NCBI GenBank assembly: GCA_964610735.1
Contig: CAZSYH010000004.1
Span: 5,299 to 69,298 of the forward strand
DNA from: an uncultured Syntrophaceae bacterium
GTDB lineage: Bacteria > Desulfobacterota > Syntrophia > Syntrophales > UBA2210
Direction of reading: 5' to 3'
DNA length: 64,000 bases
The position numbers were made by a program, and so were the translations under genes. Positions 38,438-46,076 of this stretch are shown here, in pieces; within the stretch, counting starts at the first letter, position 1, and each line of letters begins with the position of its first letter. The notes under the pieces were generated by a model that ran no database searches, was not told the origin of the DNA, and was given only the letters and a program-made list of their open reading frames with translations.

Positions 38438-39556
38438 TTAAGACTTTCTTGTCATGTTGATAAGTTGACAGACTCTCTTCAGATAAAGCTCCCAGACTTT
38501 GAAACCCCGAGAAGACACGAAACTCTGTCTCAATATTTCCGGCCTTGGAAACAGTGTCTCAAGGATGGAGTAAATCCGCACCCGTAACCCTCTGTCAGGG
38601 GAGAAGAGAAAAAGGGCGGCCCATAAGGGCAGGGATCCGTTTTTTAGTCTTTCTTTCAGCAGTCTCCTTTCCAGAAAGTGTAGTCTTTCCAACTTCAATG
38701 CCCGGCTGACTTCCGGTGGGAAGAAAAAATCAAACAGATAGCGGATCAGGAAAAAGATATATGAAACAGATTTTTCCTGGCCCATATATCGGATTCGATT
38801 AATGAGCGCTTCCCAGTCAGACTTCTTCCAGCCGGCGAACAGACTTTTGATATCCACCAGCCAGATCATTCTCTCCGCATTGTGTTTGAGTGCGTGAAGG
38901 CTCAAGATTATAACCTGATCATATTTGTTTAAAGACAGGACTTCCTCGCCCTCAAAGTCCATGATCCTGACATTCGTATAGAAATGACTCTGTCCCCGGG
39001 CAAGAATAAACTTTCGCGCCCCAATGCGTTCAGCTCCTAAAATGTGGGAGTGAAGATCGATGGTGGTGCGCCTCCTTCGGAAAGTACCCGGATAAGCAGG
39101 ATCGCTCCGGTAGCCCAGGGCGGTCAGTGTCTGGATAATTTCCCCGTGATCCCTGCCGGGTATCCAGAGATCGATATCAGTTAATTGCCTCAAACCAATA
39201 TCATGATAGACCTGTTTCAAAAGAATTATTCCCTTCAGAGGAACAACCTTTATCTTTTTCTGATTGAGCTGATGGAGAATTTCTTTGAAATCATGGAGCA
39301 GCTTGAGGTTAAAAACAACATTTCCGTGGTAGAGATTTCGAAGCGTTTCTACCTGCCGCTTATTGAGGATATCCGACAGATTTGATTTAGTGAGACTTTT
39401 ATAGAGAAAACCGGCCAGTCCTTCGTCAAAGGCCTTACCGATCAAATGGTCCACATCCACACACCGGAGCATAAGGCGTCGCAATTTCTGCTGTTGATAC
39501 AAGTCAGGATCTAACTCGGCTGAACAGGCCAGTATTTTCTGTTCAAGAGAAGTCAT
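38438..39556 (-). CDS. Uncharacterised nucleotidyltransferase (NTP_transf_5-like)
   Basis: 'KVVPLKGIILLKQVYHDIGLRQLTDIDLWIP' (the LKG...R..DIDL signature) and 'LSLHALKHN'. The family is often found beside PqqD/HprK-like genes in RiPP loci. Confidence 0.65.
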   Translation of the reverse strand: MTSLEQKILACSAELDPDLYQQQKLRRLMLRCVDVDHLIGKAFDEGLAGFLYKSLTKSNLSDILNKRQVETLRNLYHGNVVFNLKLLHDFKEILHQLNQKKIKVVPLKGIILLKQVYHDIGLRQLTDIDLWIPGRDHGEIIQTLTALGYRSDPAYPGTFRRRRTTIDLHSHILGAERIGARKFILARGQSHFYTNVRIMDFEGEEVLSLNKYDQVIILSLHALKHNAERMIWLVDIKSLFAGWKKSDWEALINRIRYMGQEKSVSYIFFLIRYLFDFFFPPEVSRALKLERLHFLERRLLKERLKNGSLPLWAALFLFSPDRGLRVRIYSILETLFPRPEILRQSFVSSRGFKVWELYLKRVCQLINMTRKS

Positions 39557-40292
39557 TCAAAGGCGCCTCACCCCGTCTGATACATGCATCTGGTTGAGGA
39601 AGAGCTCCCTCATCCACAAAGAGGCGGAAAGGCCGCCGGATAAACCACTCGGTTTTGCCCGGCAGGAGACGCCCTATCACATGTCCTGCCATGAGAAGCT
39701 GGAACTCCACTCCGTCGGAACGGCTGAAAGAAAGAACCCGCATACGCATTCCATCCGGCAACCATCGCCTGAACAGTCCCGCTTTAGCCAAACGATGATA
39801 GGCAGGATTCAGAAAGGAAGATATCACCGAATCGATGTTGCAGAAAAATCTGACTGCGGACGCATATAACAGGCCCCTTGTTCCACCATATATTGCCAGA
39901 AGCCGATTCCTCCTTCGCGCGCGGACCACACGCCCGACAATACGATCAGGGCTTAGTGACCAGGGGTCGGCATCTTTGTTATTGTCGCCCTGCGTCATTA
40001 ACCCATGGTCGGAGATGGAAATAACCCTGTGAACAACCATGTCGTTGCTGCCCGGTGGGGAAAATACGATGACATCTCCACGTCGAATCTGATCACCTTC
40101 GCCCGGCGATACATGCATTATGTCAGACACCTTCAAAACAGGGTACATGCTTGAGCCGGTGTAAACCATTTTTTTGGGGGCATATCCGGTCATGTCAGAG
40201 AACCTTTTCCATCTCGTCCCAGAAACAACCGTTAAGGCTGTTTCGGAGAATATAAGCAGGGACAGTCCTGGCCATATTACTCGCGTTATCAA
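39543..40292 (-). CDS. S26B (SipW/archaeal/ER-type) signal peptidase I homolog with ~110-aa C-terminal extension
   Basis: 'YTGSSMYPVL' (Ser nucleophile), 'VVHRVISI' (His) and 'TQGDNNKDADP'. An alternative start at ATG 40193 lies 1 nt after the upstream stop. The longer form adds a hydrophobic N-terminus. Confidence 0.75.
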   Translation of the reverse strand: MITRVIWPGLSLLIFSETALTVVSGTRWKRFSDMTGYAPKKMVYTGSSMYPVLKVSDIMHVSPGEGDQIRRGDVIVFSPPGSNDMVVHRVISISDHGLMTQGDNNKDADPWSLSPDRIVGRVVRARRRNRLLAIYGGTRGLLYASAVRFFCNIDSVISSFLNPAYHRLAKAGLFRRWLPDGMRMRVLSFSRSDGVEFQLLMAGHVIGRLLPGKTEWFIRRPFRLFVDEGALPQPDACIRRGEAPLNDFS

Positions 40293-41121
40293 AAATTTTC
40301 TTCTTTATGTCTGTCTTTTCTTTCCTATCCATGTGCCACCAGACTGGATTAATTGCCTCCGTACAGGAATCATTAATACGCACAGCCGCCTGTCCCTGGC
40401 CTATGGGAACAATTTTATCGGAGGCGGCCTGTTCTATAAAAAAAATCGCGGCAAGGGGGACATGATATTGGATATTCCAGATCTGTTCCGATCCATGCCA
40501 GAGGTGATCGCTCCATGTGGGAACGGGATGAGCAAGGTATCTGTTTTGATCATCCAGCACGACAAGGGACTGATCGTCACTCAAGGCACGCCAGTGTGGT
40601 GGAAGGCGGCGAGACAGGGTGGATTTCCCCGCGCCTCCCGGACCGGCAAGCAACACCCCGCTCCCGTTTCGCTCTGCGAGAGCCCCATGCAGAATAAGCC
40701 CGCCGGAATCGAACGATCTTAAATATATGCCGTAAAGGGCAGTCCACATTTTTATAATGTCAAGTTCATGCCTGCGGGAATGTCCGATCTCACAAACGAT
40801 ATCCGGTATTCCCTTATGTGTCCAGAGTCTGAGAGCCCCGAAATCCACGCCACTCCACCCGTCAGTTGGAAGATCTGTCTTTATCCTCGAGAATATGAGG
40901 GGATTCAGCTCATTACCTTCGTTTTTCTTCCAACGCCCCTGAACAAAGAACATCCCGATACTGCCGCGGCTCATATCCCGATCGTCAGGATTAAGTCCGA
41001 TAATCGTGGCGAATTTTTCTACCCATGACCTTGTGTCCGGAGTGGCCATAAAGGACCAGCAGGCGCCGTTGCCCAGTTTCAGAAGGAACTGTGTGTCGGA
41101 TGTTTTATCTTTCAAACTCAA
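40195..41121 (-). CDS. HprK-related P-loop protein (ScmC-like) of the RiPP cassette
   Basis: 'LHGALAERNGSGVLLAGPGGAGKSTLSRRL...ALSDDQSLV' matches the HPr kinase C-terminal catalytic pattern H-G..v...G.GvLl.G.sG.GKS...L...sDD. TTG start at 41121, 12 nt after the precursor stop. Confidence 0.65.
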   Translation of the reverse strand: MSLKDKTSDTQFLLKLGNGACWSFMATPDTRSWVEKFATIIGLNPDDRDMSRGSIGMFFVQGRWKKNEGNELNPLIFSRIKTDLPTDGWSGVDFGALRLWTHKGIPDIVCEIGHSRRHELDIIKMWTALYGIYLRSFDSGGLILHGALAERNGSGVLLAGPGGAGKSTLSRRLPPHWRALSDDQSLVVLDDQNRYLAHPVPTWSDHLWHGSEQIWNIQYHVPLAAIFFIEQAASDKIVPIGQGQAAVRINDSCTEAINPVWWHMDRKEKTDIKKKIFDNASNMARTVPAYILRNSLNGCFWDEMEKVL

Positions 41122-41133
41122 TTTGACCTTGTT

Positions 41134-45275: not shown

Positions 45276-45730
45276 TTCAGCACTCCTTCAATAGCCAGGT
45301 ATATTTCCGCGAAACAAAGCCTGTAATAATAGCTTGAAAGCTTGTACGGATCCCTGATATCATCCACGTCACCGCTGTTCAACTGAGTGCAGCCACTGGA
45401 AAATGATTTTAAGAGAAAGGTCTTCTCTTTTGCTTCAGGATAGTTTTCAATGATCGTCTTCCGTTGCTGGTGCTCCATCACAAGTATCATGTCGGTTTCA
45501 GCGACCATATCCAAAGTCAACATCCTCGATTTATGACCGTAACCATTAAACCCCTTTTCTTCCAGAATATCAACAGCTCCTGGATCACCCGGGGCTCCTT
45601 CCATATCAAAAAGGGAAGCCGATGACACCTCGATGTCGCCGCGGCCATTCTCCTCTCCCCTTTTCCTGAATACGCGCTCCGCCATAAAGCTCCGGCAGAT
45701 ATTGGCGGTGCAGACAAACAGAATTTTCAT
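45266..45730 (-). CDS. Low-molecular-weight protein-tyrosine phosphatase
   Basis: 'KILFVCTANICRSFMAE' (CX5R(S/T) P-loop) and 'DIRDPY' (Asp loop). Confidence 0.9.
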   Translation of the reverse strand: MKILFVCTANICRSFMAERVFRKRGEENGRGDIEVSSASLFDMEGAPGDPGAVDILEEKGFNGYGHKSRMLTLDMVAETDMILVMEHQQRKTIIENYPEAKEKTFLLKSFSSGCTQLNSGDVDDIRDPYKLSSYYYRLCFAEIYLAIEGVLKCI

Positions 45731-45734
45731 AAAC

Positions 45735-46076
45735 CTATTTCCTGTTTCCGGTGTATTCCAGGGCCTCTTTTACATCCTGTTTTAATTCAGGATCCGTCAG
45801 AACATTCCTTATCTCGGTTTTTGCTCTGGTAAGAGTGTACTCTACCCCCTCCTTGATATTTACTTTAATACCCTCGACGAGGACCGGGTCTGTAACTATC
45901 TGGCGTATTGTATTTGCGGCATTTCTCTGGGCATAATCTATCATTTTTTTGCCACCATAGCTGATAAAACTGAAACATATAAGAACCGTTATGATGACTA
46001 CAATCCCCCAGGGAACAGCCCTTGCAAATTCCCTTACAAAAACACCTTTTGTCCCGTTGTCTCTGTTCTCTTCCAT
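45735..46076 (-). CDS. Small single-pass membrane protein, unknown function (first gene of the operon)
   Basis: TM helix 'VPWGIVVIITVLICFSFISYG'. Its stop lies 4 nt from the LMW-PTP start. Confidence 0.4.
   Translation of the reverse strand: MEENRDNGTKGVFVREFARAVPWGIVVIITVLICFSFISYGGKKMIDYAQRNAANTIRQIVTDPVLVEGIKVNIKEGVEYTLTRAKTEIRNVLTDPELKQDVKEALEYTGNRK

Follow-up and report, generated by a model that had tools for sequence, protein, structure and literature searches.

We analyzed a 64-kb stretch of contig CAZSYH010000004.1 from an uncultured Syntrophaceae bacterium (hereafter the window, to which all positions refer), focusing on a gene block at positions 38438-46076 that appears to hold a complete SynChlorMet (Scm) gene cluster for a RiPP (ribosomally synthesized, post-translationally modified peptide). 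The list of open reading frames (ORFs) of the window contains eleven in this block, tightly packed and every one on the minus strand; a preliminary description of the same DNA had announced ten genes in its title, a miscount, since both its own list and the sequence give eleven. From the upstream end, the block contains the following genes and features.

45735-46076, minus strand: 113-amino-acid protein with one predicted membrane helix, first of the co-directional block (no NCBIfam match; homologue found only in the closest relative, locus L001)
45266-45730, minus strand: low-molecular-weight protein tyrosine phosphatase (LMW-PTP), Wzb-like (PF01451, 97.5 bits; weak matches to Wzb-type NCBIfam models)
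44478-45275, minus strand: AAA_22 ATPase of ExeA-like type, akin to the ATPase associated with the XrtA/PEP-CTERM system (TIGR03015, 234.5 bits, below the cut-off of 324.5; PF13401, 85 bits)
44155-44472, minus strand: ScmD, a discrete PqqD-type RiPP recognition element (RRE) (TIGR04248, 125.4 bits; PF05402, 65 bits)
43039-44148, minus strand: ScmE, radical S-adenosylmethionine (SAM)/SPASM maturase 1 (TIGR04250, 622.4 bits)
42945-43053, no strand: heptanucleotide array of about 15 units (Tandem Repeats Finder, TRF)
41836-42942, minus strand: ScmF, radical SAM/SPASM maturase 2 (TIGR04251, 615.8 bits; alternative GTG start at 42972)
41612-41839, minus strand: precursor ScmA2, 75 amino acids (TIGR04252, 24.8 bits, below the cut-off)
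41359-41611, minus strand: duplication relic (481-nt tandem repeat, copy-to-copy alignment)
41134-41358, minus strand: precursor ScmA1, 74 amino acids (TIGR04252, 22.7 bits; given a gene call on L050, an identical contig in ENA)
40195-41121, minus strand: ScmC, HprK/PEPCK-fold P-loop kinase (TIGR04249, 285.9 bits)
39543-40193, minus strand: SipW/Sec11-type signal-peptidase-I-like serine peptidase (TIGR02228, 63.4 bits, cut-off 51.85)
38438-39556, minus strand: NTP_transf_5 nucleotidyltransferase-fold enzyme (PF14907, 141 bits)

The spacings between these genes, when recomputed, agreed exactly with those listed in the preliminary description. The membrane protein and the LMW-PTP are separated by a 4-nt gap, the LMW-PTP and the ExeA-like ATPase overlap by 10 nt, and gaps of 5 and 6 nt follow between the ATPase and ScmD and between ScmD and ScmE. 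ScmE and ScmF are 96 nt apart (counted to the ATG at 42942), ScmF and ScmA2 share an ATGA overlap (41836-41839), and 253 nt lie between ScmA2 and ScmA1 and 12 nt between ScmA1 and ScmC. The peptidase either overlaps ScmC by 98 nt (start at TTG 40292) or follows it after a 1-nt gap (ATG 40193), and itself overlaps the NTP_transf_5 gene by 14 nt. Chance cannot account for this architecture.

The SynChlorMet family had been proposed for this locus, correctly: ScmC, ScmD, ScmE and ScmF each exceed the curated NCBIfam cut-off (TIGR04248, 100 bits; TIGR04249, 125 bits; TIGR04250 and TIGR04251, 400 bits each; the cut-off of the precursor model TIGR04252 is 35 bits). The ScmC match to TIGR04249 covers the full length, and PF27840 (ScmC) is annotated on an identical protein. 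The gene order is also the usual one of the family, with the precursors between ScmF and ScmC. By sequence, the cluster is an intact representative of a family that curated databases already list. It does not represent a new kind of system; what the analysis adds is a more complete account of this family and the recognition that it is homologous to the module that produces linear polyphosphorylated peptides (LPP).

ScmE carries a CNLRCKYC motif and a seven-Cys SPASM domain, whose cysteines (C258, C276, C319, C322, C328, C332 and C351) are kept in 34 of 34 sequences. ScmF has a CNLRCRHC motif and again a seven-Cys SPASM domain, with C23, C27, C30, C256, C273, C317, C320, C326, C330 and C348 conserved; the TIGR04251 model begins at residue 21 of the GTG-started ScmF ORF. 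The solved structures nearest to ScmE are SkfB and PqqE, matching at the level of the radical SAM core, to which the alignment with solved relatives of both enzymes is confined. Other maturase families score far lower on the two enzymes, the next best being WgkB (136 bits), AhbD (134-136), StsB (122), PqqE (112) and PapB (105), against cut-offs of 340-650.

For ScmD, the best match in the whole PDB is chain B of 9x8z (LppB), ahead of the lasso peptide RREs TbiB1 and TfuB1. ScmC contains a GPGGAGKST motif, an invariant D182 and a near-invariant D183, and its family profile matches HPr kinase (1jb1, E 2.5e-4) across the His, P-loop and DD motifs. An AlphaFold (AF2) model of ScmC (predicted local confidence, pLDDT, 88.5; predicted TM-score, pTM, 0.88) had PEPCK as its top Foldseek matches. 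HPr kinase itself has the PEPCK fold, and because this fold is common to both we read the ranking as reflecting shared fold rather than as counter-evidence to a kinase. We predict ScmC to be a peptide Ser kinase; as a homologue of such kinases it makes the phosphorylated product suggested earlier for this locus a reasonable expectation.

Related loci and the extent of the cassette

Homologues of ScmC fall into 120 protein clusters, mostly metagenomic, several of which already bear the label 'SynChlorMet cassette protein ScmC'. Scanning one genome per species, with a 12-sequence ScmC alignment as seed (A2; a 23-sequence alignment, A1, was too divergent), retrieved 49 loci. According to the record titles, these come from deltaproteobacterial lineages (Desulfobacterales, Syntrophales, Syntrophobacterales), Nitrospirae, Chlorobiaceae, Calditrichaeota, KSB1, Aminicenantes, Fibrobacterota, Saganbacteria and Victivallaceae. 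The closest relative, L001, is a 'Deltaproteobacteria bacterium' metagenome-assembled genome (MAG) whose ScmC is 87% identical to that of the window.

The order ScmD-ScmE-ScmF-small Cys-rich ORF-ScmC-peptidase recurs across the 49 loci and in several phyla. Among the loci with enough flanking DNA for counting (32 or 33), ScmD, ScmE and ScmF are each present in 26-27 of 32, the peptidase in 26 of 33, the NTP_transf_5 enzyme in 16 of 33, and an MsbA-like ABC exporter (~600 amino acids, carrying Walker and signature motifs) in 15 of 33. The preliminary description had taken the peptidase and the nucleotidyltransferase for local extras; since both recur in related loci, and since ScmC and the peptidase occur as fusions, we regard them as conserved parts of the cassette instead. 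The real conserved unit appears to be larger than the SynChlorMet of the databases, whose definition excludes the peptidase, the NTP_transf_5 enzyme and the exporter: it would comprise ScmD, ScmE, ScmF, ScmA, ScmC, the peptidase and the NTP_transf_5 enzyme, often followed by the exporter.

The peptidase passes the archaeal-type signal peptidase I model TIGR02228, and its best PDB matches are SEC11C and SEC11A. It carries a Ser-His-Asp triad and a C-terminal extension of ~100 amino acids, and S48, H88, D103 and D109 are kept in 40-41 of 41 sequences. It is probably a soluble protein of 216 amino acids translated from the ATG at 40193, a start used also in L001, L002 and L050. We favor this form because of the ScmC-peptidase fusions, the stop codons found upstream in L001 and L002, and the gene call on L050. 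A membrane-anchored form initiated at TTG 40292 was rejected: L001 and L002 are unable to encode the extension, L050 is called from the ATG, and the fusions link the kinase straight to the catalytic domain. There are four such fusions, all metagenomic (P0109, P0111, P0112 and P0115), with the kinase N-terminal and the peptidase C-terminal; they retain the C-terminal extension of the peptidase and have no hydrophobic N-terminal segment. We predict that the enzyme serves as an RRE-dependent leader peptidase. In the nucleotidyltransferase, the motif residues G109, D127-x-D129 and D235 are kept in 24 of 24 sequences, and the protein has no sequence match in the PDB.

Several loci depart from this pattern. 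Three that lack ScmDEF (L012, L037 and L043) were considered as LPP-like forms without radical SAM enzymes and discarded as orphan or cut remnants beside housekeeping genes or masked sequence. An expanded cassette is found in a Candidatus Brocadiia MAG (L051, 5800-18213), where a PqqD gene, two radical SAM genes, a 68-amino-acid ORF, a sulfotransferase-like gene and ScmC are accompanied by a 206-amino-acid protein at the usual position of the peptidase (no Pfam match), an ABC transporter, an NTP_transf_5 gene and two more radical SAM genes, each with a small ORF ahead of it (78 and 60 amino acids). At L052 (9294-11050), a 236-amino-acid PqqD-domain protein is followed immediately by ScmC as a minimal pair, with no radical SAM, peptidase or transferase gene within 10 kb.

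Precursor peptides and their tandem duplication

Each of the two precursor genes has a GGAGG Shine-Dalgarno sequence upstream of its ATG. ScmA2 consists of a YEKPLL leader and five C-x-x-G-[S/A] repeats, and both window precursors contain five Cys. The leader of ScmA1 is identical to that of ScmA2; the cores differ at 14 residues and by one deletion, with all Cys, the Gly at +3 and most Ser at +4 retained. These two peptides had been proposed as the substrates of the cluster, and the related loci bear this out, with similar YEKPxL Cys-rich small ORFs lying beside the maturases in most of the 49 loci. A lack of such ORFs in homologous cassettes, named in advance as the finding that would speak against the proposal, was not what these loci showed.

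The family was also said to have no defined substrate peptide, which overlooked an existing, though weak, precursor model (ScmA, TIGR04252). Both window precursors fall short of its cut-off, and both exceed its 49 positions in length. The model is insensitive: it matches 13 of 42 context-defined precursors at E<=0.01, so that most precursors of the family would be missed by routine annotation of public genomes. Despite the low scores, the homology of ScmA1 and ScmA2 is clear from their leader and genomic position.

The 42 precursors (alignment A3) were defined as small ORFs lying between ScmF and ScmC or elsewhere in the cassette. They share the leader motif [Y/W]-E-K-P-x-[L/I/V], and their core repeats center on an invariant Cys (200 Cys overall), followed at +3 by Gly in 168 of 200 cases. 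Ser, Gly and Thr dominate positions +4 and +5. Ala occupies position +6 in 85 cases and position -4 in 74, and Gly occupies position -2 in 71. Neighboring Cys are 9-12 residues apart in 130 of 158 intervals, and the number of Cys per core ranges from 2 to 11. An [A/G]-x-G motif, present in 34 of the 42 precursors, sits 16-18 residues past the leader Tyr in 32 and 2-4 residues ahead of the first Cys in 35. Precursors thereby become readable in most Scm members: their leader and decapeptide repeat are defined, and a cleavage site can be predicted.

The two precursor genes of the window arose through a tandem duplication of 481 nt, which TRF reports as 2.0 copies, 92% identical, at 41090-42048. 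The relic between the genes (41359-41611) has two components: a non-coding copy of the final ~190 nt of scmF, and the 3' tail of the upstream copy, whose end duplicates the scmC start (TTGAGTTTGAAAGATAAAACATC). Both this relic and the heptamer-array spacer, as they had been described, are thus real (TRF, 481 nt x 2.0 and 7 nt x 14.6). The duplication, with its two precursors of five repeats each, sets the window apart from the database definition of SynChlorMet. L001 has one precursor only, and the identical contig L050 begins inside the duplication. The scmC-start copy in the relic (TTG AGT TTG AAA GAT AAA ACA) opens a 34-amino-acid ORF at 41495-41599 (MSLKDKTSYAHL...), probably a meaningless decoy start made by the duplication.

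Divergence between the two 481-nt copies is uneven (Fisher P = 1.4e-7), amounting to 1.9% (4/209) in the relic of the scmF 3' end and 1.5% in the leader, as compared to 15.4% (24/156) plus one codon indel in the core-coding part. The ratio of nonsynonymous to synonymous divergence (dN/dS) in the core is 0.69, with a dS of 0.22, and synonymous divergence there is about tenfold above that of the neutral relic. Since the synonymous divergence of the core is also high, we set aside simple positive selection on the duplicated core in favor of a mosaic history, in which the flanks may have undergone gene conversion or a diverged core may have been imported.

The heptamer array spans the ScmE stop and the spacer between ScmE and ScmF. 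TRF finds a period of 7 with 14.6 copies at 42949-43050 (42945-43053 over overlapping rows), and the coding-strand unit is (A/T/C)AGTGAA. ScmE of the window takes its TGA stop from the array, whose unit length is not a multiple of three. L001 has an array of ~9 copies of an AGTGGAC unit in the same place (8575-8660), through which the ScmE frame runs on; no array is present at this site in L002 and L003. The array could be a slipped-strand element, variable in copy number, that affects the C-terminus of ScmE or the translation of ScmF.

A second, distinct peptide cluster adjoins the Scm cassette in several of the related genomes (L011, 1200-5900; L035, 2200-4430; L046, 13600-20876). It contains weakly ScmE-like radical SAM, PqqD and S26-like genes. 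In its peptides, a K-E-Y-K-K-P-x-[VL] leader is combined with a C...C...C core that ends in GS/TS, as in MEKSKKKEYKKPEVKRVSLDAKCAVLAFCKSSG....

Homology to the LPP module and a predicted pathway

The LPP cluster of Paenibacillus alginolyticus (lppA-K-B-S-D-N) directs the synthesis of linear polyphosphorylated peptides of Bacillota (Popov et al., Nat Commun 2026, PMC13381572). In this system, LppK adds several phosphates to Ser3 of the core, and LppS, with the triad Ser29-His68-Asp93, removes the leader only if LppB presents it, preferring phosphorylated substrate (PMC13381572). The leader consensus is YxxPxVLxHQxIxFETxxS, and the clusters, reported as restricted to Bacillota, are located within capsular polysaccharide loci; no radical SAM enzyme is mentioned for them (PMC13381572).

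Direct comparison by BLASTP aligned ScmD with LppB (33% identity over 73 amino acids, E 6e-11) and the window peptidase with LppS (26% over 121 amino acids, E 3e-13), where S29, H68 and D93 of LppS line up with the conserved catalytic Ser, His and Asp. Profiles built from the related loci gave 69.8 bits for LppS, 40.5 for LppK and 36.5 for LppB, and with the ScmC family profile LppK outscores the lasso kinases PbaK and BsfK. The NTP_transf_5 family profile gave 145.6 bits for PbaN, 92.1 for LppN and 51.7 for BsfN. Judged by these comparisons, ScmD is a homologue of LppB, ScmC of LppK, the peptidase of LppS and the nucleotidyltransferase of LppN. Given this homology of the four enzymes that are not radical SAM proteins, the system is best read as an LPP-type module for recognition, phosphorylation and leader removal to which two radical SAM enzymes have been joined, and we consider it likely that the locus is a complete Scm cluster of this composition. 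Every Scm gene outside the radical SAM pair thereby gains a tested precedent, and the LPP-type logic of kinase, peptidase and RRE would extend beyond Bacillota.

The likeness extends to the YxxPx[L/V] motif in the leader, to the presence of an RRE as a discrete protein, a kinase resembling HprK and an NTP transferase together in one cluster, and to the position within polysaccharide loci; the LPP protease is a signal peptidase I of archaeal type with a Ser-His-Asp triad, sequence features that the window peptidase shares. The two systems differ in several respects. LPP clusters have no radical SAM enzyme, whereas two radical SAM/SPASM enzymes are integral here; LPP cores are free of Cys and rich in Gly, Asn and Pro, whereas the cores here are built of Cys repeats; and the LPP product is thought to be linear, with phosphorylation of core Ser as its primary modification. 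The MsbA-like exporter of the LPP cluster is missing from the window. LPP is reported to be confined to Bacillota, unlike the Scm family, which occurs in deltaproteobacterial lineages, Nitrospirae, Chlorobiaceae, KSB1 and other phyla.

Paeninodin and pseudomycoidin lasso clusters are similar in having an HprK-like Ser kinase (PadeK/PsmK), an NTP_transf_5-type enzyme (PsmN) and, for reading a [Y/W]xxP leader, a discrete B1-type RRE. Among the homologues scored with the window nucleotidyltransferase family, PbaN ranks first. A sulfotransferase is likewise encoded in paeninodin-type clusters, and a sulfotransferase-like gene is carried by the Brocadiia relative. The lasso clusters are set apart by their macrolactam synthetase and B2 cysteine protease, neither of which is among the eleven genes of the block; leader removal here would use a serine peptidase, and the class-defining enzymes are the two radical SAM proteins. 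The AsnB homologue at 17100-19019 is no evidence for a lasso pathway: it lies 20 kb away and scores, in a partial match, 276 bits on the lasso cyclase model (cut-off 525) as compared to 518 on asparagine synthase (cut-off 267). The same AsnB-type amidotransferase also matches a PEP-CTERM amidotransferase model with 581 bits (cut-off 817).

Ranthipeptides and sactipeptides share with the window a SPASM radical SAM maturase, an RRE and a repeated, Cys-bearing core (freyrasin/PapB with Cys-X3-Asp; SCIFF/CteB). Thuricin CD is a precedent for two radical SAM enzymes per cluster (PMC12093266), and PapB forms Cys-Asp/Glu thioethers (PMC9413430). However, no Asp or Glu is conserved in the repeats here, the RRE is discrete and not fused as in those classes, and a kinase, a signal peptidase I (SpI)-like peptidase and an NTP transferase are not among their features. 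Models of characterized thioether maturases score far below their cut-offs (in brackets): PapB 105 (340), StsB 122 (625), SkfB 79.5 (300) and AlbA 79 bits (850).

With four Scm proteins homologous to the experimentally dissected LPP system, most steps of the pathway become concrete, testable predictions. By homology to LppB and the lasso B1 proteins, ScmD would bind the [Y/W]xxPx[L/I/V] leader motif (YEKPLL here) and present the peptide to the other enzymes. ScmE and ScmF would then modify a core of ~10-residue repeats, A-x-G-x-C-x-x-G-[S/T/G]-[S/T/G]-A, of which there are five per peptide here; the invariant Cys and the enzyme class point most probably to a Cys-derived thioether to a nearby residue in each repeat. 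ScmC may phosphorylate one or more Ser, as LppK, PsmK and PadeK do. The soluble SpI-like peptidase is expected to cut off the leader in an RRE-dependent manner after A17-E18-G19 and before K20, a site suggested by LppS, by the -3/-1 small-residue rule and by the position of the motif. Finally, the NTP_transf_5 enzyme may add a further group to the phosphate, as does PsmN, which in pseudomycoidin is needed for the addition of hexose onto phospho-Ser (PMC6993621).

A number of points weigh against this pathway. Across the 42 precursors, none of the Ser residues keeps a constant distance from the predicted cleavage junction, and the leader stretch HQxIxFETxxS of LPP is absent here, where the rest of the leader reads LIDFAMEDRAEG. 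The chemistry of ScmE and ScmF is not assignable from sequence. The evidence for an operon structure is the gene spacing; a scan for promoters and terminators gave five terminator-like sites, three of them on the coding strand, all intragenic and fewer than in shuffled sequence. The LppK and LppN sequences used in the comparisons were rebuilt by optical character recognition from a supplementary alignment figure and miss a few residues. Literature searches on SynChlorMet, TIGR04248-04252, PF27840, ScmA with radical SAM/SPASM, and radical SAM with HprK in RiPPs found no experiment on any Scm protein; a search for 'ScmC' returned unrelated acronyms only, and a compendium paper on radical SAM RiPPs mentions neither the cassette nor a kinase or signal peptidase. 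Lastly, a homologue of the cassette-associated ABC exporter is found nowhere in the 64-kb window, in agreement with the absence of a transporter gene noted earlier, so that export must use a transporter encoded elsewhere.

The exopolysaccharide neighborhood and alternative readings

Downstream, the block is bounded by an HD-GYP gene on the opposite strand, beyond which lies an exopolysaccharide (EPS) locus of ~27 kb with genes for Wza, a Wzc-type tyrosine kinase, Wzy_C, a flippase, glycosyltransferases and an AsnB-type amidotransferase. The genes nearest to the block are the following.

37184-38296, plus strand: HD-GYP-type protein bounding the block (match to a NosR-family cyclic di-GMP phosphodiesterase, 62.8 bits; PF13487 HD_5 on the identical contig L050)
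35603-36745, minus strand: Wza-type polysaccharide exporter (part of a combined entry, 32511-36745; Pfam labels on L050)
32511-35531, minus strand: Wzc-type chain-length determinant/tyrosine autokinase (within the same entry, which scores 191 bits on TIGR01007 and 135 bits on TIGR03027; Pfam labels on L050)

The LMW-PTP of the block is a likely partner of this Wzc-type kinase. Comparison with the related loci indicates how closely the EPS genes are tied to the cassette. The exact order membrane protein-LMW-PTP-ExeA-like ATPase-ScmD is common only to the window and L001, and an LMW-PTP adjoins the cassette only in L001 and L003. An ExeA-like gene is near the cassette in L001, L003, L004, L011, L031 and L053, upstream and on the same strand in L004 and L053, downstream and on the opposite strand in L003, L011 and L031. 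HD-GYP homologues lie beside the cassette in L001-L004, L011, L031 and L053, a conserved neighbor in this clade, and Wza or Wzc is close to it in L001, L003, L004, L010, L034, L043, L046 and L053. We treat the membrane protein, the LMW-PTP and the ExeA-like ATPase as neighbors from the flanking EPS system, probably co-transcribed, and not as core RiPP genes. The preliminary description had called the cluster fused to EPS regulators; this holds for the close relatives (L001 and, in other arrangements, L003, L004, L011, L031 and L053) and not for the family at large, where the broader pattern is embedding in EPS loci, with an ExeA, Wza or Wzc homologue in 8 of the 27 loci that have full flanks.

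This pattern raises the question of why such peptide clusters recur inside polysaccharide loci. One answer would be that the product is tied to EPS or biofilm, either as a signal that regulates EPS synthesis or as a peptide glycosylated by EPS enzymes into the matrix. The loci at which Wza, Wzc, ExeA-like or HD-GYP genes adjoin the cassette include ones from distant lineages, namely L004, L034, L053 and the KSB1 locus L046, whose ScmC is only 30% identical. LPP and paeninodin clusters of Bacilli are likewise embedded in capsule loci, where their NTP transferase seems to depend on a partner whose gene lies outside the core cluster (PMC13381572), and PsmN puts hexoses on phospho-Ser (PMC6993621). 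Against this, about 70% of the full-flank cassettes have no EPS gene within 10 kb, and the authors of the LPP study call the EPS link speculation (PMC13381572). The count of 8 in 27 has no background rate beside it and draws on loci that are not independent phylogenetically, and we therefore treat the tie as a hypothesis with clearly less than an even chance of being right. It is with similar reserve that we suggest a view of SynChlorMet as a multi-phylum, radical-SAM-elaborated sister of LPP that may make a cross-linked, phosphorylated and possibly glycosylated peptide processed by a cytoplasmic signal-peptidase-like enzyme, its repeated placement among EPS genes (in deltaproteobacterial lineages, KSB1 and others) paralleling that of LPP and paeninodin clusters in Bacilli and perhaps reflecting a shared role in matrix or biofilm.

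A rather improbable alternative is that all eleven genes form one functional operon for a sactipeptide or ranthipeptide with five thioether bridges, with locus-specific tailoring enzymes and functionally fused EPS regulators. The very tight spacing, including the 5-nt gap between the ExeA-like gene and scmD, the identical arrangement in L001, the same-strand upstream ExeA-like gene in L004 and L053 and the five Cys of each precursor would all fit. However, only L001 and L003 have the LMW-PTP and the membrane protein alongside the cassette, the ExeA-like gene switches strand and side in L003, L011 and L031, and most cassettes lack all three genes; moreover, the peptidase and NTP_transf_5 enzyme are family-wide, and the scores of known sactipeptide and ranthipeptide maturases stay far under their cut-offs.

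There is little to recommend a multi-core precursor, in which each ~10-residue repeat would be a separate core and the peptidase would cut at every A-x-G to release several small peptides instead of one 55-residue product. Repeat numbers of 2-11 with a regular period of ~10 are in its favor, as is the resemblance of internal sites to the predicted junction (Ala at -4 and Gly at -2 of Cys in 74 and 71 of 200). Yet A-x-G-x-C occurs in only about one third of the repeats and does not precede most Cys of the window peptides, and cleavage by LppS needs an RRE-bound leader (PMC13381572), which internal repeats do not have.

Still less probable is a peptide serving as scaffold of a redox cofactor, as in pyrroloquinoline quinone (PQQ) or mycofactocin pathways, which also use PqqD, a SPASM enzyme and a peptidase. 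A PqqD-family protein does adjoin the SPASM enzymes, and the PqqE and MftC models give 99-112 bits, but these lie far under the cut-offs (for ScmE, PqqE 111.6 against 381 and MftC 106 against 265). Core length and repeat number are highly variable, the paralogous cores differ by 15%, and 15 of 33 loci encode an ABC exporter; cofactor precursors, by contrast, have a fixed reactive dipeptide. We find it equally hard to credit a kinase-driven dehydration, in which ScmC would phosphorylate Ser or Thr at +4/+5 and elimination to dehydroalanine and attack by Cys would give lanthionine-like rings, the radical SAM enzymes being otherwise used: Ser, Thr or Gly are common at these positions and class III/IV lanthipeptide synthetases do proceed by phosphorylation then elimination, but the cluster showed neither a phospho-lyase nor a cyclase domain, LppK and PsmK leave a stable mono- or polyphosphate on Ser, and +4 is Gly in 42 of 200 repeats, so that many lack an acceptor.

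Within the EPS locus, the G+C content drops to 0.35-0.37 at window positions 24000-30000, as compared to 0.43-0.51 elsewhere. The low-G+C stretch covers the flippase, an FkbM-type methyltransferase, glycosyltransferases and genes without a family match, and looks like a horizontally exchanged, serotype-type cassette.

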